A stretch of 64,000 bases of DNA from Escherichia coli (lineage in GTDB: Bacteria > Pseudomonadota > Gammaproteobacteria > Enterobacterales > Enterobacteriaceae): the NCBI RefSeq assembly GCF_016026235.1, contig NZ_CP065613.1; one strand, given 5' to 3'. The notes below the pieces were generated by a model. The model saw only the letters and a program-made list of their open reading frames with translations, was not told the DNA's origin and did no database searches. Positions 1 through 62,634 of the stretch are shown piece after piece (the first letter of the stretch is position 1; every line of letters begins with the position of its first letter). A program made the translations under genes and the position numbers.

Positions 1-85
1 GTTGATTCTGGTCGTGGTTCTGGTGGTAGGCGTGCGCTGGTGGCTGAAACGACGCGGGAAGAAAAAGCCGGATAATCAGGCGTAA
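1..85 (+). CDS. yohD: C-terminal fragment of an inner-membrane protein (DedA-family-like); 5' end lies outside the window
   Basis: Frame 2 is open from the window edge to TAA at 83-85 and translates ...LILVVVLVVGVRWWLKRRGKKKPDNQA* (hydrophobic helix then basic tail). Gene name is from recalled synteny upstream of yohF. Confidence 0.5.
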   Translation, partial: LILVVVLVVGVRWWLKRRGKKKPDNQA

Positions 86-92
86 AACCATT

Positions 93-174
93 GCCCTGGA
101 TAAGGCGTTCGCGCCGCATCCGACATCCGGTGCACCATGCCTGATGCGGCGCTTGTGCGTCTTATCATGCCTAC
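93..174. repeat. REP/BIME-type palindromic units between convergent yohD and yohF
   Basis: ggataaggcgttcgcgccgcatcc and gcctgatgcggcgcttgtgcgtcttatcatgcctac match REP consensus shapes (GCCGGATG...CCGGCCTAC / GCCTGATG...CAGGCCTAC). Confidence 0.6.
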
Positions 175-214
175 CAAAATTTTACCCATTGAAATATCCA
201 CACACCTCACTGCG

Positions 215-976
215 CTATTCTGGGTTGAACTGCGGATTCGCCAACATAAAGCCGCCATCCACTATCAACGACTGCCCGGTGGTGTAATTTGCGCCCTCCG
301 AACAAAGCCACGCCACCAGGCTGGCAATCTCATACGTTGCGCCAAAACGCCGCAGAGGAATCGAAGGCTCCGCGTCGGGCTTCACGTCGCTATCATCCAT
401 GCCGTTCATTGGCGTAGCGATCGCCCCAGGTGCGACTGCGTTCACCAAAATCTTATGCCTGACCAACTCCAGCGCCATTGCTTTGGTTAACCCGCCGAGC
501 GCATGTTTAGCGGCTGTGTAGGCGCTGGCATCCGGCAGCGGCGTATGTTCATGTACCGACGTAATGTTGATGATGCGACCACCCTGCCCTTGTTTCACCA
601 TCTGGCGGGCCGCAATTTGTGAGCATAAAAATGCACCATCGACATCAACGGTAAAAATCTTGCGCCACTCATCGAAAGCCATATCAAGAAACGGCGCTTT
701 GGTCATTGCGCCCGCATTATTCACCAGCACATCAATACGCCCCAGCCGTTGAATGAGTTTCTCCAGCGCCTGTGCACCTTCTGGCAGTTTACCGAGATCC
801 AGCTGCACAATCTCCGCACGTACGCCGTGGCTAACTACCTCACGCGCGGTATCTTTTGCCCCTTCTTCATCTGAGTGCCAGGTAATGCCAATATCAAACC
901 CTTGCTGCGCCAGTAATAACGCGCACTCTTTGCCGATCCCCGAATCGGAGGCGGTAATAATCGCAACCTGTGCCAT
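215..976 (-). CDS. yohF: SDR-family oxidoreductase YohF
   Basis: ORF 215..988 (GTG at 988); likely ATG at 976 (MAQVAIITASDSGIGK...) with GGAG 8 nt upstream; glycine-rich Rossmann motif TASDSGIGK. Confidence 0.9.
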   Translation of the reverse strand: MAQVAIITASDSGIGKECALLLAQQGFDIGITWHSDEEGAKDTAREVVSHGVRAEIVQLDLGKLPEGAQALEKLIQRLGRIDVLVNNAGAMTKAPFLDMAFDEWRKIFTVDVDGAFLCSQIAARQMVKQGQGGRIINITSVHEHTPLPDASAYTAAKHALGGLTKAMALELVRHKILVNAVAPGAIATPMNGMDDSDVKPDAEPSIPLRRFGATYEIASLVAWLCSEGANYTTGQSLIVDGGFMLANPQFNPE

Positions 977-1028
977 CGAGTTCTCCACTTAACGCTGAAT
1001 AAACGTTAAGTATAGAAGGCGCATATCA

Positions 1029-2465
1029 TCAGCGTTTGTAACCCCCGCCCAACGCACCAGTGAGTTGAATGGAGGCATCCAGCCACTGCCCTTGCAATAA
1101 CAGGCCATTGGCCCGCTCACGCAGCGCGGGGATTCTGGCTTCGCTGACGCGGGAACCAGCAATGATGCCCGCGTTAAAGCGCGCCTGCGCAAGACCTACC
1201 ACACGCAAGGCATCGCGCTCAATTTGCGCCTGATGCTGGTTTTTCTCCGCAAGTGTCTGAACGTGACTGGCTGCCCGCGCCACGTCATTCACCGCTTCAA
1301 CCACCGCTTTGTTGTAGCTGGCGATAGACAAGTTGCTTTCGGCTTTTGCGATATCAAGATTGGCGTTAAGACGACCACTATCGAAAATGGGTAGCGTCAG
1401 GCCTGCCGTAACGCCCATTTGCTGCGCGGAATGACGGAACAGATCGCTTAAGTGCAACGCATCCTGTTGCAGGAAGGCCATCAGGTTGATGTCAGGATAA
1501 AATGCCGCTTTTGCCGCATCAATGGTGCTTAGCGATGACTCAACGTACCAGTGCGCCGCCTGCAAATCTGCCCGCCGCGCCAGTAAGGAGTACCCCAGTT
1601 CATCAGGAAGCTGGCTTGCCACTTTCGGCAACGCGACCGGTTTAAGCTTCAATGACTTAGTCTGGTGATTTGTGAGTGCATTTAACCGTGCCTCAATAAT
1701 TTTCATTTTCCCCGCGACATCGTTGAGCTGCTGCCGGGTTTTGCTGGCATTAATATCGGTTTCCACACCTTCAACTGAAGAAGTAATCCCGTTCTGATAT
1801 AGCTGGCGATCGGTCGCGATAATGGTGTTCTGCTCTTTTTCGATTTGCTGCAAGACAGTGTTTAACGCCGCCTGGGTTTGCCACTCCCAGTACAGGCGGG
1901 CTACGCTGCCAGCCAGCAATTGGCGGGTTTGCTCGCGTTCCGCCGCCCGTGCTTTAACCGTACCCTGGCGGGCAGTAACCTCCGCCCGATTCTTTCCCCA
2001 GATATCGAGATGCCAGCCCGCCGTTAAGCCAAAAGTACCGTTGGTGTACCACGGACCGGTCGTACCTGCGGCCGGATCGTTCAGAGCAAACGGCCCCATT
2101 AGCCCTTCTGCCGACATTTTTTGCCGCTCCATATCCGCAGAAAAGTCGATCTGCGGACCATCCTGAGTGGCAACTGCCTTCGCCTGGGCTTCAGCTAGCT
2201 GAATGCGCTGTTCAGCCACCTGCATATCCGGTGCGTTCTGTAGTGCATTGTTAATTAATGAAGTGAGTTGATTATCGTGATACTCCAGCCACCATTGGCT
2301 GTCTGGCCAACCATTTTTCAGCGCCGTGGGTAATGCGGTGTCAACTTGTGCAGCGGGCGTTTGCTGGCTTAACGCCTGGCGGGTTTCATGCATAGGCGCA
2401 CACCCGGTCAGCATCAGTAACAGCGGAAAACAGGCGATGGCTGGATAAAAGGAATCACGATTCAT
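1029..2465 (-). CDS. mdtQ: Outer-membrane efflux lipoprotein MdtQ (OMF/TolC-like family), uninterrupted 478-codon frame
   Basis: ORF 1029..2555; conserved start MNRDSFYPAIACFPLLLMLTGCAP (lipobox LTGC) at ATG 2465; full-length OMF-like sequence with no internal stop. Confidence 0.85.
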   Translation of the reverse strand: MNRDSFYPAIACFPLLLMLTGCAPMHETRQALSQQTPAAQVDTALPTALKNGWPDSQWWLEYHDNQLTSLINNALQNAPDMQVAEQRIQLAEAQAKAVATQDGPQIDFSADMERQKMSAEGLMGPFALNDPAAGTTGPWYTNGTFGLTAGWHLDIWGKNRAEVTARQGTVKARAAEREQTRQLLAGSVARLYWEWQTQAALNTVLQQIEKEQNTIIATDRQLYQNGITSSVEGVETDINASKTRQQLNDVAGKMKIIEARLNALTNHQTKSLKLKPVALPKVASQLPDELGYSLLARRADLQAAHWYVESSLSTIDAAKAAFYPDINLMAFLQQDALHLSDLFRHSAQQMGVTAGLTLPIFDSGRLNANLDIAKAESNLSIASYNKAVVEAVNDVARAASHVQTLAEKNQHQAQIERDALRVVGLAQARFNAGIIAGSRVSEARIPALRERANGLLLQGQWLDASIQLTGALGGGYKR

Positions 2466-2688
2466 GGGGGAATAATCAGGTAAGAAAAGGTGCGCGGAGA
2501 TTACCGTGTGTTGCGATATATTTTTTAGTTTCGCGTGGCAATACATCAGTAGCAATAAAACGACATATCCAGAAAAATATACACTAAGTGAATGATATCT
2601 TCCGATTTATCTTAATCGTTTATGGATAACGGCAAAGGGCTTCGTTTTTTCCTATACTTATTCAGCACTCACAAATAAAGGAACGCCA

Positions 2689-2772
2689 ATGAAAATTATA
2701 CTCTGGGCTGTATTGATTATTTTCCTGATTGGGCTACTGGTGGTGACTGGCGTATTTAAGATGATATTTTAA
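2689..2772 (+). CDS. yohP: Small membrane protein YohP (27 aa)
   Basis: ATG 2689 preceded by AGGA; translation MKIILWAVLIIFLIGLLVVTGVFKMIF* is a single TM helix matching the recalled YohP sequence. Below the ORF-track length cutoff. Confidence 0.7.
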   Translation: MKIILWAVLIIFLIGLLVVTGVFKMIF

Positions 2773-2889
2773 AAATCAGATATGACATATAAGTTGTCAG
2801 GTCAGGAACTAGATATTTTGTGTACTTGATTTGCAAACAGCTCCGGTGTTGGTGGCGTCAAAATCGCTGAAGCGTTCCACGAAGGCCGG

Positions 2890-3110
2890 GGCAGCCCACA
2901 TGGATGTGGGCTGAGGGCGCGTCTTACAAGGACGTTTCCTCGCGCCCGACCCGGTAGCCGAAGGGGATAAGCTGAAGGTACCGCGCAGCGGCGATTTTGT
3001 TCGCCAGAGCCCGGGGGTGCAGGGGGAGGAGGCGATTGTCCTCCCCCTGCGCGCTCCTTGCGCCAGTGGCAATATGTGGCTTAGCTCATGAAAGGAGCGC
3101 AACAAGATGA
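2890..3110. other. GC-rich cluster of hairpins/palindromes of unassigned family between yohP and dusC
   Basis: Perfect or near-perfect inverted repeats: gcccacat-gg-atgtgggc (2894-2911); gggcgcg...cgcgccc (2915-2947); cagggggagga-ggcgattg-tcctccccctg (3020-3049); gcgctcctt...aaggagcgc (3051-3110). GC content far above the flanking AT-rich DNA. Confidence 0.4.
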
Positions 3111-3159
3111 TGAAGCTGAATAAGCGATTCATTGTCTCTGATAAACTGCGATTCCACTA

Positions 3160-4110
3160 TTATCGCAGCTTATCGATATCAATTGCCTGAATAGCCCTTG
3201 CAATATCAGGGGAATTATTCAACACCCGAACATGCTGAAATAATTCTGTTGCTTCATCGTATTCTTTACGCAAATAACTCAACCACTGTTTAATCCGCGC
3301 TACGTGATATAACCCGGTATCGCCCTGCTTTTCCAGACGGGTATATTTTTGCAGCAAAGCAACCACCTCCGGCCACGGCATTCGCGGTTCGTTATATTTT
3401 ACTACCCGGCTCAGGTTGGGAATATTGAGCGCCCCGCGACCAATCATCACTGCGTCGCAGCCGCTGATCGCCATGCATTGTTGCGCGCTCTGCCAGTCCC
3501 AGATTTCGCCGTTGGCAATCACCGGAATATTCAGCCGCTGGCGAATCTCGCCAATCGCCTGCCAGTCAATATGCTCCGCGCGGTAACCCTGCTCTTTTGT
3601 CCGTCCATGCACCACCAGCTCCGTAGCACCAGCCTGTTGAACCGCATCGGCGATTTCAAATTTCTTCTCACCGCTGTCCCAGCCCAGACGCACTTTCACG
3701 CTGACGGGCAAATGCGCCGGTACAGCTTCACGCATCGCTTTTGCACCCTGGTAGATGAGTTCAGGATCTTTGAGTAACGTTGCCCCACCACCGCTGCCGT
3801 TGACCGTTTTCGACGGGCAGCCGCAATTGAGATCCACGCCCCAGGAACCTAATTCCACCGCACGGGCGGCGTTCTCTGCCAGCCATTGTGGGAACTGACC
3901 CAACAACTGCACGCGCACCAGCGTACCGGATGGTGTCCGGCTGGCGTTTTGTAGCTCAGGGCAAATGCGATGAAAAACTTTTACCGGCAGCAGTTGATCC
4001 ACCACGCGGACAAACTCGGTGATGCACAGATCGTAGTCGTTAACTTCGGTCAGCAATTCACGCACCAGAGAGTCAAGCACACCCTCCATCGGAGCCAGTA
4101 ACACACGCAT
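3160..4110 (-). CDS. dusC: tRNA-dihydrouridine synthase C
   Basis: ORF 3160..4176; conserved start [13 protein letters not shown] at ATG 4110; Dus-family TIM-barrel sequence. Confidence 0.9.
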
Positions 4111-4312
4111 ATCTTCACCCGCAAAAAAATGAGGCGCCATGTTAGCGCCTATGGTCAACGGATTAAAGGTCTGCAAAGAGGGATTGCTGCAAACTGTAAT
4201 CCCTCTCTATGCTTGATGTATGCCTGAGTTCGTTGCGCATTGCGTAATGCCGGGGAGCGAAAAAATAAGCGCTGATTTCTTAATGTGATCGGTAGCACGT
4301 TTTACGAATTAA

Positions 4313-5439
<1,127 letters not shown>

Positions 5440-5443
5440 AATT

Positions 5444-5459
5444 TGCGATGCGTCGCGCA
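5444..5459. promoter_or_regulatory. Candidate distal CRP site (CRP-2) of the cdd promoter
   Basis: tgcga-tgcgtc-gcgca, a weak match to TGTGA-N6-TCACA, centred 50 bp upstream of the proximal site, consistent with the known tandem-CRP/CytR architecture of cdd. Confidence 0.4.
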
Positions 5460-5493
5460 TTTTTGATGTAAGTTTCACGCGTTGCATAATTAA

Positions 5494-5509
5494 TGAGATT
5501 CAGATCACA
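5494..5509. promoter_or_regulatory. Candidate proximal CRP site (CRP-1) of the cdd promoter
   Basis: tgaga-ttcaga-tcaca; a -10-like TAAACT lies at 5531-5536 and the ATG at 5569; TGCAAC-like CytR motif (gttgca, 5481-5486) lies between the two CRP sites. Confidence 0.55.
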
Positions 5510-5568
5510 TATAAAGCCATAACGGGTTCGTAAACTGTTATCCCATTACATGATTATGAGGCAACGCC

Positions 5569-7564
<1,996 letters not shown>

Positions 7565-7739
7565 TATTTTCTCTTTTCTGTTAATTATTGAGAATAATTA
7601 TTACTTCACTCAATAAGCTGCGGATATAACATTCTGAACCGCAGCTATTTGTGAATCCTTTCACAGTTTAAATTTCCCCACGCGCATAGCCTTAATATCA
7701 GCTCGCAATATTTATACTCTAAATAATTCGAGTTGCAGG

Positions 7740-7853
7740 AAGGCGACAAGTGAGTGAGTCCCCAGGAGCTTACATAAGTAAGTGACTGGGGTGAGCGAAC
7801 GCAGACGCAGCACATGCAACTTGAAGTATGACGAGTATATTAGCGTTCGCCTT
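7740..7853. repeat. ERIC/IRU (enterobacterial repetitive intergenic consensus) element
   Basis: Contains aagtaagtgactggggtgagcg (identical to the ERIC2 primer sequence) and gtgagtccccaggagcttacat (one mismatch to the ERIC1R complement); terminal inverted repeats aaggcga...tcgcctt. Confidence 0.85.
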
Positions 7854-7881
7854 AATTACTCATAGCATTAAGGAAGATCAC

Positions 7882-9120
7882 ATGCCGCAACAAAATTATC
7901 TGGATGAACTCACTCCGGCTTTTACGCCGTTACTGGCGATTAAAGAAGCCTCTCGCTGTTTATTATGTCACGACGCTCCCTGTAGTCAGGCTTGCCCGGC
8001 ACAGACCGATCCGGGGAAATTTATTCGCTCAATCTACTTTCGTAATTTTAAAGGCGCTGCCGAGACAATTCGCAAAAATAATGCCCTCGGTGCCGTTTGT
8101 GCCAGAGTGTGCCCGACGGAGAAATTATGCCAAAGCGGTTGTACCCGTGCCGGTGTTGATGCTCCCATTGATATCGGCCGCTTACAGCGTTTTGTTACTG
8201 ATTTTGAACAACAAACCGGGATGGAAATTTATCAGCCCGGTACTAAAACGCTCGGCAAAGTCGCGATTATTGGCGCAGGTCCTGCCGGATTGCAGGCCAG
8301 TGTGACACTGACAAACCAGGGTTATGACGTCACGATTTATGAGAAAGAAGCGCACCCCGGTGGCTGGTTGCGTAACGGTATTCCGCAATTCCGGTTACCG
8401 CAATCAGTGCTGGATGCAGAGATCGCCCGTATTGAAAAAATGGGCGTGACCATTAAGTGCAACAACGAAGTCGGTAAAACACTCACCCTGGAGCAACTGA
8501 AAGCGGAAAACCGCGCGGTACTGGTCACCGTGGGGTTATCAAGCGGTTCCGGGCTACCGCTGTTTGAGCATAGCGACGTTGAGATTGCCGTCGACTTCCT
8601 GCAACGTGCACGACAGGCGCAAGGCGATATCAGCATTCCACAAAGTGCATTAATTATCGGCGGCGGTGATGTCGCGATGGACGTAGCCAGCACGCTGAAA
8701 GTTCTCGGCTGTCAGGCGGTAACTTGCGTAGCGCGTGAAGAGTTAGATGAGTTTCCGGCAAGCGAAAAAGAGTTTGCCAGCGCCCGGGAGCTGGGCGTTT
8801 CGATCATCGATGGATTCACGCCAGTAGCCGTGGAAGGCAATAAAGTCACGTTTAAGCATGTACGGTTATCGGGCGAACTGACGATGGTGGCAGATAAAAT
8901 TATTCTCGCCGTCGGTCAGCATGCCAGACTGGATGCCTTTGCGGAGTTAGAGCCGCAGCGTAACACCATCAAAACACAAAATTACCAGACCCGCGACCCG
9001 CAAGTCTTTGCTGCTGGCGATATTGTTGAGGGTGACAAAACCGTGGTCTATGCCGTAAAAACCGGGAAAGAAGCCGCCGAGGCGATTCATCACTATTTAG
9101 AGGGAGCTTGCTCATGTTAA
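7882..9120 (+). CDS. preT: NAD-dependent dihydropyrimidine dehydrogenase subunit PreT
   Basis: ORF 7828..9120; conserved start [14 protein letters not shown] at ATG 7882 with AAGGAAG upstream; 4Fe-4S cysteine clusters and GAGPAG FAD/NAD fold. Confidence 0.9.
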
Positions 9121-10359: not shown

Positions 10360-10416
10360 GCATCCGGCATTTAGTTCCTGTCGCCGGATGCGGCTTGAAC
10401 GCCTTATCCGGCCTAC
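10360..10416. repeat. REP/BIME element
   Basis: cgcatccggca followed by gccggatgcggcttgaacgccttatccggcctac between convergent preA and mglC. Confidence 0.75.
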
Positions 10417-10475
10417 AAAACCACACAGATCATGATGTTATGTGCGTTTATGACCGAATGCGAACCACAATCACA

Positions 10476-18500: not shown

Positions 18501-20480
18501 TCAGAAGCGATAATCCACTGCCATAAAGTAACGACGTCCGTCTTCGTTATAGCTGTAGTCGTCACGACTGAGATCCTTGTTGCCAAGGTTCAGCACGCCT
18601 GCGCGCAGTTTGACGTCTTTAGTCACCTGCCAGGCCGCTCCGGTATTCCAGATGGTATAACCGCCAGGTGTTTTAGCCGTCGCGCTGTCGGCTCGTTTCT
18701 GCCCGGTATAGTGACCAGAAACATAGAATGACCAGTCTTCCAGCGCCAGCGGTTTCCAGTCCAACGTACCGTTAGCGGTATGGAACGGCAGATCAGATAG
18801 CGGTTTATTTTCGCCGTTGCTGACATCACGACCATCGTTGTAGGTGTAGTTGAGTGACAGTTTCCATTCATCGTTGAACGGAATTTTCAGCTCGGTTTCC
18901 ACGCCCTGAATACGTGCTTTGTTAACGTTGTAGTAGCTAAATACCGGCACACCGTTCGCTGTAAAACCAACAAAGTTTTGGTAGCCCGGTGCAGCATTGA
19001 CGTCAGACGTACGGCTGATGCTGATACGATCTTTCACATCGTTACGGAAAACGGTAACGCTGGATTCAACCCCTTCCAGCCAGCCTTCTTCACCCATGTA
19101 GTAAAGCCCCAGCTCCCAACTTTCGCTGGTTTCTGGTTTCAGATCCGGGCTACCCACAATCTTACATGCGCCACGGCAGGAATTGCTCGTCCAGTCAGGG
19201 CTAAGTTGCAACAGAGAAGGTGCTTTAAATGCCGTCGCCCAGCCCCCTTTCACCGTTACGGTGTCGGTGGCGTTATAAACCAGGTAAGCACGCGGACTCC
19301 AGTGTTCACCGTAGGTTTCATGATCGTCCATACGTACGCCGGTCGTCAGCGCCAGCGGCTCGAAGATCCGCCATTCATCTTCCACAAACAGCGCGTACTG
19401 GCTGGCAGACGTTTTGGAGCTGGTTCCCCCGGTCAGGTTCACCGCATCGCTAAGTTTGTCGTGACGCCATTCACCGCCAACCGTGAGAAACTGATTAATC
19501 GCCGTCAGCGGCAACGTGTATTTGCCGTCGACCGTATTGCTTTCGGAAGTTATCGGGCTGCTGTTGCCAGGGTTTTTGTTCTCGACTTTCTCACCGTAGT
19601 ATTTCAGTTCGCTGGTGCCGTAATCCCAACGCCCATTATGGCTGACGGAGTAGTTCTGGCGTTCCAGGCGGTTTTTGTCCAGCGAGTCGGAATCACGATC
19701 CTGACGGTCGAAACCGTATCCGGCAGTAAAATCGTGATTTTGATTCGGTGTCCAGGCAAATTCGACATTGCCGTCGCGGCTGGAGAATCCTTCAATACGC
19801 GGCGTATCTCCGGTATCGGTGGTCGTTGAGTTTTGCGGGTCATCCTTTTCACGTTTTGCCAGGCTGCCGTAAGCTTTCATTCCCAGCACACCATCAATTA
19901 ATGGTCCACTGGTAAAGAACTGACCGTTATAGGTATCACCGCGATCGCGATGTTCCTGAATGGTGGTATCGACGGTAACGGTACCCGACCATTTCTGACC
20001 GATTTTTTTGGTGATGATATTCACTACACCGCCGAGCGCATCGGAACCGTACAGCGACGACATCGGGCCACGGACCACTTCAATACGTTCGATGGAATCG
20101 ACCGGGATCCAGTTCAGATCGAAATCATTGTGGCGGAAGACGGCATTGCGGGAGTTAACGCGTTTACCGTCGACAAGAATCAGGGTGTAGCTGCTGTCCA
20201 GACCACGAATACTAACGCCCTTACGGTTATCCCCTTCGTTCGTCAGTTGTACGCCAGGCACTTCTTTGAGGACATCCTTCAGATTCTGTACCGGTTTTCG
20301 CTGCAGGTCTTCCTGGGTAATGACGCTGATACTGGCGGGTGCATCTTTAAGGTTTTGTTCAACGGAAGATGCAGTGACAACCATCGTTTCGCCATCATCA
20401 TCGACCGCTAACACAGGCCATGCACAAGAAATAGCGGACAAACACAGCCCGACCCGTACGAAAGGGTTCAACCTAAACAT
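18501..20480 (-). CDS. cirA: TonB-dependent catecholate siderophore / colicin I receptor
   Basis: 659-aa ORF with signal peptide, TonB box ETMVVTA, plug and barrel, C-terminal ...AVDYRF. Confidence 0.95.
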
Positions 20481-26504: not shown

Positions 26505-26538
26505 GCCGGATTCGACGCTTGACCGCATCTTATCCGGC
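26505..26538. repeat. REP-like palindrome downstream of nupX
   Basis: gccggattcgacgcttgaccgcatcttatccggc; closely resembles the unit after psuT (29696-29732). Confidence 0.55.
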
Positions 26539-26552
26539 TCATAAATTGCGCA

Positions 26553-27803
26553 CTACGCTAAACCAATAAAGAATCCTGCAATAGTAGCACTCATCAGGTT
26601 AGAAAGTGTCGCCGCCGCCAGCGCGCGTAAACCAAGTTGGGCGATTTCCGGCGCACGGTGTGGCGCAACCGCAGAAAACGCCCCCACCACCACCCCGATA
26701 GAACCAAAGTTAGCGAAACCGCACAACGCGAAAGAAATAATCGCCACGGTTTTAGCATCCAGAGTGCCACCCGTTTGCAGATATGGCGAGAAATTGAGAT
26801 AAGCGATAAATTCATTGATCGCCAGCTTCTGCCCAATCAAACTCTCGGCAAGATTTGCATCACTCCAGTCAACCCCCATCACCCACGCCAATGGGGCCAA
26901 CAGGTAACCTAAAATGGACTCCAGCGAGGCATGTGCAAAACCAAACCAGCCGCCAACGCCGCCGATAATACCATTAATTAACGCAATGATGGCGACAAAT
27001 GCCATAACAACTGTCGCTACACCGGCGGCGATTTTCAGCCCGGTCATTGCCCCTGTCGCAGCGGCTTCAATAATGCTTTTTGGCGGTGTTTCGGTGAAAG
27101 AGAGGTTATTAAAGGAAACCTGCGAAGATTCCGTAGCCGGGCTTAACAGGCGGGCAAACAAGATCCCGCCTGGGATCGCCATTAACGATGCCGCCAGCAA
27201 ATATTCCACAGGTACGCCCAGGGCGGCGTAACCAATCATTGTCGAACCAGCAATCGAGGCCATGCCACTACAAATCGCTGTAAATAATTCATTGCGATTC
27301 AGACGATCGATAAAGGGTTTGACGATCGCCGGAATTTCGTTTTGCCCGAGGAAAATGGTGGTGACCGCGACGAATGACTCAATCTTGCTGATATTTAATG
27401 CTTTCTGGAATATACCGCCGAGAATGCGAATTAAAATCCCCATCACACCGATGTAGTAGAGAATACTCACCAGTGCAGTGACGAAGATAATTACCGGTAA
27501 TACCCTGAAACCAAAGATAAATCCTGCGCCATCAAACAGCGTGTCCATTTTCGGCCCGACCAGCGAACCGAAGATAAATGCGCTACCCGCGTCGCTGTAC
27601 GCCATCACTTTATGCACGCCAAAAGCGACTTTTTCAGCGACCCAACACCCTGGCGGTAACCAAAGCATAATCCCGCCAATCACGACCTGTAACACTAACG
27701 CCGCGCCAACGGTACGCAGGCTGATCTTCTTCTTGTTTACTGACAGTAAAAACGCAATCGTCAGCAATACCACCATTCCCAGAACACTTCTCATGACATC
27801 CAT
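26553..27803 (-). CDS. nupX: Concentrative nucleoside transporter (CNT family) NupX
   Basis: 416-aa ORF; paralog of psuT in this window (most residues identical by eye). Confidence 0.9.
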   Translation of the reverse strand: MDVMRSVLGMVVLLTIAFLLSVNKKKISLRTVGAALVLQVVIGGIMLWLPPGCWVAEKVAFGVHKVMAYSDAGSAFIFGSLVGPKMDTLFDGAGFIFGFRVLPVIIFVTALVSILYYIGVMGILIRILGGIFQKALNISKIESFVAVTTIFLGQNEIPAIVKPFIDRLNRNELFTAICSGMASIAGSTMIGYAALGVPVEYLLAASLMAIPGGILFARLLSPATESSQVSFNNLSFTETPPKSIIEAAATGAMTGLKIAAGVATVVMAFVAIIALINGIIGGVGGWFGFAHASLESILGYLLAPLAWVMGVDWSDANLAESLIGQKLAINEFIAYLNFSPYLQTGGTLDAKTVAIISFALCGFANFGSIGVVVGAFSAVAPHRAPEIAQLGLRALAAATLSNLMSATIAGFFIGLA

Positions 27804-31086: not shown

Positions 31087-32021
31087 TTAACCCGCGAGAC
31101 GCTGATATTCTTTGGCAATTTCGCTCGCCAGAATGGCGTTGTTGAACACCAGCTGGATGTTGGATTTCAGGCTGTCACCGCCGGTCAGCTCAGCAACGCG
31201 CGCCAGCAGGAATGGCGTACTTTCTTTACCAATAACACCCTGCGCTTCAGCTTCAGCTACCGCCTGATCGCCGCATTGATAGTGTGTTCCGGCATAGCAA
31301 ACTGTTCCGGGATCGGGTTCGCTACCACGAGGCCACCGTTCAGCCCGCTTTGCCATTTCACCGCCATTGCACGGGCAATTTCGCTGGCGCTGTCGAGACG
31401 AATGCTGACGTCAAACGGGCTGGTACGGCAGAAAAACGCAGGCAGCGCTTTAGTCTGATAGCCAATTAACGGCACACCGAAGGTTTCTAAATACTCAGTG
31501 GTTAATCCTAAATCGAGAATAGATTTCGCCCCGGCACAAACAACGGTGACATTAGTATTTGCCAGTTCTTGCAAATCGGCAGAAATATCGAAGGTATGTT
31601 CCGCCCCGCGATGAACACCACCAATTCCCCCGGTGGCAAATACTTTAATTCCGGCAAGCGCCGCAATAATCATCGTTGAAGCCACAGTGGTTGCGCCATT
31701 TTTTCCGGCGGCAACAACAAAAGGTAAATCGCGACGACTAACTTTGGTCACGTTATGCCCTTCACGACCCAGTAATTCAATTTCTTCTTTGCTTAAACCC
31801 ACTTTCATCACGCCACCAATAATGGCGATAGTGGCAGGTACTGCGCCCTGTTTACGAATAGTTTCTTCAACTTCAATTGCGGTCTGGGCATTTTGTGGGA
31901 ACGGCATCCCGTGAGAAATAATGGTCGATTCCAGCGCCACAACCGGTTTTTTGTTTTTTAAAGCGTCCTGCACTTCCGGGGAAATTTGTAATAATTCAGG
32001 GGAAATTTTTAATTCAGACAT
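31087..32021 (-). pseudogene. psuG: Pseudouridine-5'-phosphate glycosidase with a disrupted reading frame
   Basis: N-terminal 252 residues in ORF 31257..32021 (ends ...PEHTINAAIRR*); conserved C-terminal 60 residues DQAVAEAEAQG...EYQRLAG are in another frame (ORF 31087..31356). Frames meet at plus 31261-31274 cgcctgatcgccgc. Confidence 0.75.
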
Positions 32022-60042: not shown

Positions 60043-62634
60043 TCAGAACGTCCAGACCACACCCGCCTGGGTATTCCACGGCGATTCTACCCCTGCGCCA
60101 TTGCCATAGCTGACTGACAAATGACCGCTTAACGTCGGGGTAAACGATGACCTTATCCCAGCCTGATAAACGCCACTGGTTCCAGCCACATCATTATTAA
60201 ATTTGCCATCGTCATTAACTTTCACCTGGTTAGAATCGGCGTATTCCTGACGTACGGCGGCTTTCAGCCAGGGTTCCAGCGTCGTACCGTTTTGCAGGTC
60301 CATGTGATAGCTTACCGCCGTTCCCGCTTCAGCGCGTAATATCCGGGTATTTCCCACATCCGCGCGCATGCCGTTTGATAACGTGTAGTCCTGACCATCT
60401 GTGGTAAAGCCGGTAAAGGCCAGATAGGGTCTAACACTCCACAATCCGTCAACCCAACGGAACCCGCTCTCAACATGAGCACCCGCGCCGTTACTATTGT
60501 AATCGCCAAACGCTGTTGCCCCATTACTCATCTTGCCATGGATGGTGTTGGCAAAACGGTCAACTTTCACCACCCCATCAACATAGGCACCGTTCTGATG
60601 CTCCCAACCGGCATAAGCCCCCAGGGTATAGCTATCGACATTGCCTTTGCCGCCGCGATCAAAACCAATATCAGAATGAGAGTAACCAAAGAACAAGCCG
60701 CGAATTGTGCTGCTTTCTTCACGGGAGAAACGGCTATCGATACCGAGCGTCAGGCCCGTCAATGTTTGCTCAAAACCAGCTCCCGCATCAGTGGTCACGT
60801 TGTTGCGGGTGTTAATTGCCGAACTCCACATCGCCGTATCGTAACTAACGCCTTTTACGCTACCAAGACGCTCACGCACGGTGTCCAGTTCTGCATCAAA
60901 TACCAGCGGTTGTGCTGCCGCCATATTTAGCACATCAGTGGTTGAAGGGGTAATTTGCGCGCGATTCTCTGCCAGACTCCAGCTATGATTGCCATTATCC
61001 AGCAAGGTATATTCATACGTACCGATATCAACAACGCCTCCGGCATTGCCCAACGTAAATGCAGCATCACCGCCGCCCGTTGTTACCAGTGTAAGGCTAT
61101 CTCCTGCTGCCGGGCTGGCACCGGTGTCCGTCACGAATATTTTGAAATCACCTGTTGCCTGGCCAGTGACGTTAAGCTGATCGCTCTGATGATTGGCCAT
61201 ATCGGTACGCATATAAAAATTGCCGTTTCCCGACAGGGTATTGGTGGTCAACGTTATGAAATTTTCCGCACTTGCCGTCACTGATGAACGAGTCACTGGC
61301 TCAGCCATCATAATCACATTTGCGCCAGACATCGCAAGGTTGGCTAAGTTGAGGAGGGTGTTTTGGTTCGTCGTAGTGATATTGGCAATGATGGTCCATG
61401 CGCTATTTTCGAGCGAAACATCCGCTTTGCTGGTATCCACGGCACCATGCGTTCTAAAAGAAGCGCCCTCAGAAACCACGACCTTACCCACCAACATAGC
61501 GGGTGCATAATTTATTTGCGGCTTCATGACCTCAAGAATGCCATCATTCCCTCTGACTGAAACGTTAACCATTGTGCCAGCCCAGACGTTAGCGCGGCCA
61601 TTGTTGATAACCATATTTTCAGAGATGGCTTTAGAGGAATACGTTATACTTCCATTCTGATCTGATCGACCGAGATCATATACCGCATTTGCCTGCACTC
61701 TCGTACCAGTATCCTTTCCCAGCGATTGCATAGTGGCATGCTCATCAAGGATAGTGTCAATGGCCTGCGTGTCCTCCATAACAATGAGCCCGGAACCATC
61801 ATCCAGTTCATAATTTTTTGACACACCATCTTTTATACTAAATTGGCCTTTACTGTTTGTACCACTCACTTCCAGCGCATTCGTTGAGACAATTAATTTT
61901 CCGCCTGCTTTTTTATCAACGCCAGTTGCAGTCCCGCCATCCATAACCTCCAGTAAGCCGCCACTATCTACAGTAGTATTATAAGCGAAGTCATTTTCTT
62001 CAACTCGCAAACTTCCGCCGTTTTCCAACAGCATATTGTTAGCAATACCATTCTTGATTTCGAACTGACCGAGACGGTTTGTTCCGAATACCTCCATGAC
62101 CCGCGTGCTTGCTTTAATAGCACCGCCTGCTTTCTGATCTACCGCAATCGCTAATCCCCCCTCTTTAACCTCCAGTAATCCTCCCTTTTCGATAGCGGCA
62201 AGGACGGTAATCCCATCTTTTTCAACGATTAAGCGCCCGCCTTTAATCGTGGGATCATTCGCTGCGCCATAAACCTGTAGCACACCATTATTGAGGGTAG
62301 TCTGGTTTGCCGCGCCACCCATTTGAACAATTTGATAACCATCATTTAATACGGAGTATTCTGCGGTGCCATTCATTTCAATGTACTGATACCCGCCGTT
62401 AATTTCAGTATTACTACTTATACCAAATTCTTTAATATGCTGTTCTCCGCCAGGATTGATTTTCGTATTATTGGCGGTCCCATAAACCAGCTGGATATCT
62501 TTTTCCAGGACAACACCATCAACTGTCTCACCATACTCAACTGTTGATGCCAATGCTATGGGTGAATATAACGCTGTAGCCACCAGAACAGATATTGCGG
62601 AACGACAAAGAGAAACAGAACCAGATTGATGCAT
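60043..62634 (-). CDS. yejO: Type Va autotransporter (adhesin-like) YejO, uninterrupted
   Basis: 863-aa ORF with signal peptide MHQSGSVSLCRSAISVLVATALYSPIALA, repetitive Gly/Asn/Thr-rich passenger and C-terminal beta-barrel ending ...QAGVVWTF. Confidence 0.85.
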   Translation of the reverse strand: MHQSGSVSLCRSAISVLVATALYSPIALASTVEYGETVDGVVLEKDIQLVYGTANNTKINPGGEQHIKEFGISSNTEINGGYQYIEMNGTAEYSVLNDGYQIVQMGGAANQTTLNNGVLQVYGAANDPTIKGGRLIVEKDGITVLAAIEKGGLLEVKEGGLAIAVDQKAGGAIKASTRVMEVFGTNRLGQFEIKNGIANNMLLENGGSLRVEENDFAYNTTVDSGGLLEVMDGGTATGVDKKAGGKLIVSTNALEVSGTNSKGQFSIKDGVSKNYELDDGSGLIVMEDTQAIDTILDEHATMQSLGKDTGTRVQANAVYDLGRSDQNGSITYSSKAISENMVINNGRANVWAGTMVNVSVRGNDGILEVMKPQINYAPAMLVGKVVVSEGASFRTHGAVDTSKADVSLENSAWTIIANITTTNQNTLLNLANLAMSGANVIMMAEPVTRSSVTASAENFITLTTNTLSGNGNFYMRTDMANHQSDQLNVTGQATGDFKIFVTDTGASPAAGDSLTLVTTGGGDAAFTLGNAGGVVDIGTYEYTLLDNGNHSWSLAENRAQITPSTTDVLNMAAAQPLVFDAELDTVRERLGSVKGVSYDTAMWSSAINTRNNVTTDAGAGFEQTLTGLTLGIDSRFSREESSTIRGLFFGYSHSDIGFDRGGKGNVDSYTLGAYAGWEHQNGAYVDGVVKVDRFANTIHGKMSNGATAFGDYNSNGAGAHVESGFRWVDGLWSVRPYLAFTGFTTDGQDYTLSNGMRADVGNTRILRAEAGTAVSYHMDLQNGTTLEPWLKAAVRQEYADSNQVKVNDDGKFNNDVAGTSGVYQAGIRSSFTPTLSGHLSVSYGNGAGVESPWNTQAGVVWTF

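Follow-up and report, generated by a model that had tools for sequence, protein, structure and literature searches.

The multidrug-efflux gene mdtQ (formerly yohG/yohH) is one of four TolC-type outer-membrane-factor genes of Escherichia coli, and lies close to one end of the window, the whole stretch of 64,000 nucleotides that was analysed. It is flanked downstream by yohF, encoding an SDR oxidoreductase, and upstream by the divergent yohP, encoding a small membrane protein (Table 1). The order yohF-mdtQ-yohP-dusC is the same in the window, in K-12 and in FDAARGOS_943, and the position of mdtQ is thus orthologous and colinear in all three. No transporter or adaptor gene adjoins mdtQ in the annotated neighbourhoods of K-12 and FDAARGOS_943; because pump genes are not adjacent, it is regarded here as an orphan channel gene, as it also is in a 2025 review of TolC (PMC11762307). 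The neighbouring yohF may be co-transcribed with mdtQ, and no terminator-like site was detected in a scan of the minus strand between positions 976 and 1029. A promoter scan around mdtQ returned two sites, against 3.0 expected by chance; the promoter and terminator scan performed no better than on shuffled sequence and is therefore uninformative on the regulation of mdtQ. An Rfam scan at gathering thresholds found no structured RNA in positions 1-8000 of the window.

Beyond yohP, the spacer that separates it from dusC (2849-3120) is occupied by a repeat of ~272 bp at the site known in the literature as TRIP1c; its orientation is opposite to that in K-12, with which it shares only 88% identity. 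Its arrangement is identical in FDAARGOS_943, and a 107-aa ORF inside it (2809-3132, minus strand) is probably spurious. TRIP1 repeats are described in forward and reverse copies, with recombination between copies (PMC10888264).

Table 1. Features of mdtQ and its immediate neighbours in the window
Feature	Coordinates	Strand	Basis
mdtQ CDS, intact	1029..2465	-	Open frame; NF008524 match; two PF02321 stretches; PGAP CDS in FDAARGOS_943
Lipoprotein signal peptide, residues 1-22, lipobox L19-T20-G21-C22	2400..2465	-	Read from the translation
A5 run (T5 on the plus strand), gene nt 148-152, codons K50-N51; A4 in K-12	2314..2318	-	Alignment with NC_000913.3
mdtQ 5' leader with in-frame upstream TTG (2553-2555)	2466..2555	-	508-aa ORF; 508-aa cluster members
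yohF (SDR oxidoreductase)	215..976	-	52 nt downstream of the mdtQ stop, same strand, own GGAG
yohP (27-aa small membrane protein), divergent upstream neighbour of mdtQ	2689..2772	+	100% identical to K-12 yohP; annotated

The mdtQ frame runs from ATG 2465 to a TGA at 1029-1031 and comprises 1437 bp, or 478 codons and a stop, with no internal stops; a single uninterrupted frame of 478 codons had been proposed in the first-pass annotation, which gave no strand. By simple arithmetic, an open frame of this length has a probability of ~1e-10 ((61/64)^478), and is therefore not attributable to chance. A mechanically compiled ORF list extends the frame to the upstream TTG at 2555, yielding 508 aa. The ATG start, which the first-pass annotation had also used, is adopted because the NCBIfam model NF008524 ('multidrug resistance outer membrane protein MdtQ') aligns over positions 1-478 of its 478 with residues 1-478 of the ATG-started protein (1018.6 bits; cut-off 650). 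It is very improbable that the 508-aa protein, with a 30-residue cytoplasmic extension ahead of the signal peptide, is the true product. The frame is open as far as the TTG and several NCBI entries of the same 90%-identity cluster are 508 aa long, but the equivalog model has 478 positions, PGAP gives a 478-aa MdtQ in every complete genome inspected, and a signal peptide works only at the N-terminus; the TTG-started form was dropped on the model alignment and the signal-peptide position. No Shine-Dalgarno-like purine run was found within 15 nt of the mdtQ ATG (upstream sequence ...CTTACCTGATTATTCCCCC-ATG; leader 2466-2525, minus strand), which hints that mdtQ may be weakly translated.

In the translated N-terminus (MNRDSFYPAIACFPLLLMLTGC), a charged n-region precedes a hydrophobic core and an L-T-G-C lipobox whose cysteine is Cys22, with Ala next at position +2; the intact lipoprotein signal peptide noted in the first-pass annotation is thus confirmed in the translation. 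Lipoboxes follow the consensus [LVI][ASTVI][GAS]C, and under the Lol +2 rule Ala at +2 is the default for outer-membrane sorting. As in the NodT/OprM subfamily, a lipoprotein signal (MNRDSFYPAIACFPLLLMLTG directly ahead of Cys22) can be read from the translation, and residues 16-475 match the model of NodT-type efflux outer-membrane subunits (TIGR01845; 275.4 bits, cut-off 210.05). The Pfam OEP domain (PF02321; 106.4 bits, cut-off 22) is found in two stretches, corresponding to the two tandem repeats of the family. Among proteins of solved structure, the best homolog is VceC of Vibrio cholerae (1yc9, E = 4e-39), followed by OprM, CusC, SilC, CmeC and OprN (E = 1e-20 to 1e-23), over ~420-460 residues and thus nearly full length; MdtQ is therefore homologous to trimeric channel-tunnel proteins of solved structure. 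Identity with MdtP was considered and rejected, since the score of the window protein with the MdtP equivalog model NF007390 (352.7 bits) is below the cut-off of 597 and marks a paralog rather than a member. MdtQ would work like TolC yet falls outside the TolC subfamily proper (type I secretion TolC model TIGR01844; 53.5 bits, below the cut-off of 225.15).

In K-12 MG1655, the orthologous locus b2139 (NC_000913.3 2227323..2228758), which has the same neighbours as in the window, is annotated as a pseudogene of 1436 bp. Its alignment to the window is 98.6% identical, with 19 substitutions and a single 1-bp gap. The gap corresponds to the loss of one A from the A5 run, leading to a stop at codon 70; K-12 therefore retains a 69-codon N-terminal piece that includes the signal peptide, and the long rest of the gene is out of frame, whereas the window frame is intact. 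The first-pass annotation had described mdtQ as a frameshifted pseudogene in K-12, and had named comparison with the reference allele as the test of its claim; the description is correct, and no identical intact allele is found in K-12.

A contrast that hangs on one base in a homopolymer run could in principle reflect a sequencing error, either a false A5 in the window or a false A4 in the K-12 reference. Such runs are a classic site of base-calling errors, and the singleton frameshift of S88 and the +1 change in a G run of PKF8, described below, could be errors of this kind. For the K-12 lesion, however, this explanation is vanishingly improbable. An 81-mer carrying the A5 run of the window is exact in 3054 independent complete genomes, with the other genomes, the K-12 set among them, 1-3 positions off. 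Of 5411 complete E. coli genomes, 355 contain the corresponding K-12 A4 80-mer without a mismatch, and all 60 carriers among the matches listed look, from their names, like K-12 laboratory derivatives (including MG1655, DH5alpha, C600, J53, DH1 and NCM3722), which were sequenced independently. Because each allele recurs exactly, in 3054 and 355 genomes respectively, both are real, and an error in the homopolymer was ruled out.

Intact mdtQ is the norm in E. coli; it is K-12 that departs from it, and the window has the usual state. Of 5426 complete RefSeq E. coli genomes, 5420 possess the gene, on the chromosome every time. Forty rows were sampled across the entire ranking, and in 35 of them the copy is exactly 1437 bp long; the remainder comprise three of 1436 bp (one of them from S88), one of 1438 bp (PKF8) and one IS1-truncated remnant. 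The two 1436-bp copies other than that of S88 appear to be from K-12-type strains, as shown directly for KR2009 only. Intact 478-aa MdtQ is annotated by PGAP in ST131, in BL21(DE3), in the ground-beef isolate F3398 and in two further isolates, and the same gene is found in O157:H7 (UniProt Q8X659). Consistent with this picture, a 2025 review places mdtQ in the conserved E. coli core genome even though it is annotated as a pseudogene (PMC11762307). It was already documented that the gene exists, is intact in most E. coli and is a pseudogene in K-12. The exact window protein is also public, having been deposited in NCBI/UniRef as MdtQ of Escherichia coli from 23 contigs, the longest of 5.07 Mb, and its 90%-identity cluster holds 11,156 sequences, including some from E. 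albertii.

Lesions other than that of K-12 do occur. A -1 frameshift at nt 87 is seen in S88 alone of the 5426 genomes and could stem from an assembly error; in STEC379, the 5' 60% of mdtQ has been lost in association with IS1; and in PKF8, an additional base in a G run near the 3' end replaces the last four residues and adds eight, giving 486 aa. Since these lesions are sporadic and independent, mdtQ is taken to be dispensable, if only in the laboratory and for certain isolates. Recurrent pseudogenization at the level of lineages was considered and rejected, the S88 lesion being confined to one of 5426 genomes and the others being sporadic. No second widespread broken allele was found, either by checking the S88 lesion across the 5426 genomes or in the 40-row sample.

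The window allele of mdtQ was compared with seven other lineages by the Nei-Gojobori method, after in-silico repair of the frameshifts in K-12 and S88; dN/dS is 0.06-0.15 at dS of up to 0.10, indicating that mdtQ evolves under purifying selection as a protein-coding gene. The alleles of other phylogroups have 97.3-99.0% DNA identity to the window, with the same length and context. That of FDAARGOS_943 (WP_096854100.1), a PGAP-annotated mdtQ CDS of 478 aa, has 99.9% DNA identity and its product differs from the window protein by a single residue (L167, compared with Q167 in the window). Between the window protein and the other alleles compared there are 5-9 residue differences, including T20 (Ala), Q167 (Leu) and H401 (Gln); T20 and H401 are common to the window and FDAARGOS_943, while the seven other alleles compared have Ala20. 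Residue 20 is position -2 of the lipobox, where Thr and Ala are both acceptable because both fit the consensus. No defining feature of MdtQ is disrupted by these differences.

Two further loci had been cited in the first-pass annotation, which described yejO as intact and psuG as broken; both descriptions hold. The autotransporter gene yejO (60043..62634, minus strand) is an uninterrupted frame of 863 aa free of IS5K, whereas yejO of K-12 is split by a 1195-bp IS5K; the window runs from K-12 fragment 2 straight into fragment 1. A tRNA-Pro gene (proL) directly adjoins yejO in the window as in K-12, at a site where FDAARGOS_943 has an integrase/IS21 island. In psuG (31087..32021, minus strand), a 4-bp deletion near 31270 removes one CGAT of the CGATCGAT repeat (gene nt 752-755) and introduces a stop at residue 255 of 312. 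This deletion is found in no complete RefSeq E. coli genome, the best 80-mer match (95.2%) reflecting the 4-base gap itself. FDAARGOS_943 retains CGATCGAT; its psuG is instead interrupted by a separate IS5-family insertion, and its psuK stops prematurely at codon 58. Within one lineage, the pseudouridine-catabolism operon has been hit independently in the two strains.

Every other K-12 gene of the window with a full-length alignment is open; the alignments of dusC and nupX end four bases before the 3' end and leave the stop codons uncovered. FDAARGOS_943 is the complete RefSeq genome closest to the window (99.9%), and it differs structurally from the window, with the IS5 in psuG and the integrase/IS21 island at proL. 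Several minor differences from K-12 were also observed. The cirA gene (18501-20480, minus strand) measures 1980 bp, an in-frame shortening by 12 bp compared with the 1992 bp of K-12, and has the same length in FDAARGOS_943. Both nupX (26557-27803; 95.0%) and yohF (215-976; 96.3%) are clearly further from K-12 than the genes around them (98-99.6%), which suggests that they are recombination patches. Short breaks or overlaps in colinearity with K-12 at the yeiS-preT (7701-7844), preA-mglC (10360-10439) and yeiI-nupX (26538-26551) spacers are probably REP/BIME-type variation. A 25-kb query from the window has a median of nine match places per genome, consistent with short dispersed repeats.

Taken together, these observations support the reading, to which we assign a probability of roughly 93%, that mdtQ of the window is an ordinary, functional-looking allele, namely an intact full-length ortholog in a conserved context and under purifying selection, and that the loss of an A is specific to the K-12 lineage. 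Because K-12 is the exception, the contrast with K-12 is uninformative about this strain; the differences in mdtQ and yejO tell only that the strain is not K-12. In annotation and typing alike, the label 'pseudogene in the reference' attached to K-12 should not be taken as the state of the species.

An intact frame does not prove expression, however, given the lack of a Shine-Dalgarno sequence, the chance-level promoter scan, the unestablished promoter and function, and the existence of strains without the gene. A related possibility is that mdtQ is intact but silent or cryptic, an orphan channel gene that weak selection or recent ancestry has kept open and that is idle under normal conditions. 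This is consistent with the absence of both a Shine-Dalgarno-like motif and a convincing promoter, with the absence of pump genes alongside, and with the survival of K-12 and a handful of other strains in the absence of an intact gene; moreover, the available review notes that the mdtQ promoter has no experimental confirmation and that the function has not been elucidated (PMC11762307). Such silence is nevertheless unlikely. The low dN/dS over this range of dS indicates selection on the protein, the gene is kept in nearly all complete genomes and predominantly at its exact length, and null mutants of mdtQ have been reported to be more susceptible to puromycin, as well as to acriflavine and tetraphenylarsonium, and these phenotypes constitute the only functional data (PMC11762307).

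A further possibility is that efflux genetics conducted in K-12 has missed a real function of MdtQ, for example as an alternative exit duct for a pump assigned to TolC or as a stress-specific channel. This appears distinctly unlikely. In a weaker variant, the A20T (lipobox), L167Q and Q401H substitutions could alter the maturation or gating of MdtQ. A strain with an intact allele, such as this one, is the right background for studying MdtQ function. Under the preferred reading of an ordinary, functional-looking allele, and by analogy with the outer-membrane-factor family, the MdtQ precursor would be exported through Sec, lipidated at Cys22 and transferred to the outer membrane by Lol, this destination being predicted because the +2 residue is Ala and not Asp. 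The mature protein would then form a trimer with a 12-stranded beta-barrel and a long alpha-helical periplasmic tunnel, as in TolC, OprM and CusC, and may provide the exit duct for a tripartite efflux pump by docking transiently to an adaptor and an inner-membrane transporter encoded elsewhere.

MdtQ resembles OprM (1wp1), CusC (3pik), SilC (9rmm) and VceC (1yc9) in its lipoprotein N-terminus and two-repeat OEP architecture, though unlike these proteins it is without a solved structure. OprM, CusC and SilC are encoded in operons with their own pumps, in contrast to the solitary mdtQ. The closest E. coli paralog of MdtQ is MdtP, the outer-membrane component of MdtNOP, which belongs to the same subfamily. 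Null mutants of the two genes are reported to have similar drug susceptibilities; however, mdtP shares an operon with mdtN and mdtO, and mdtQ stands alone (PMC11762307).
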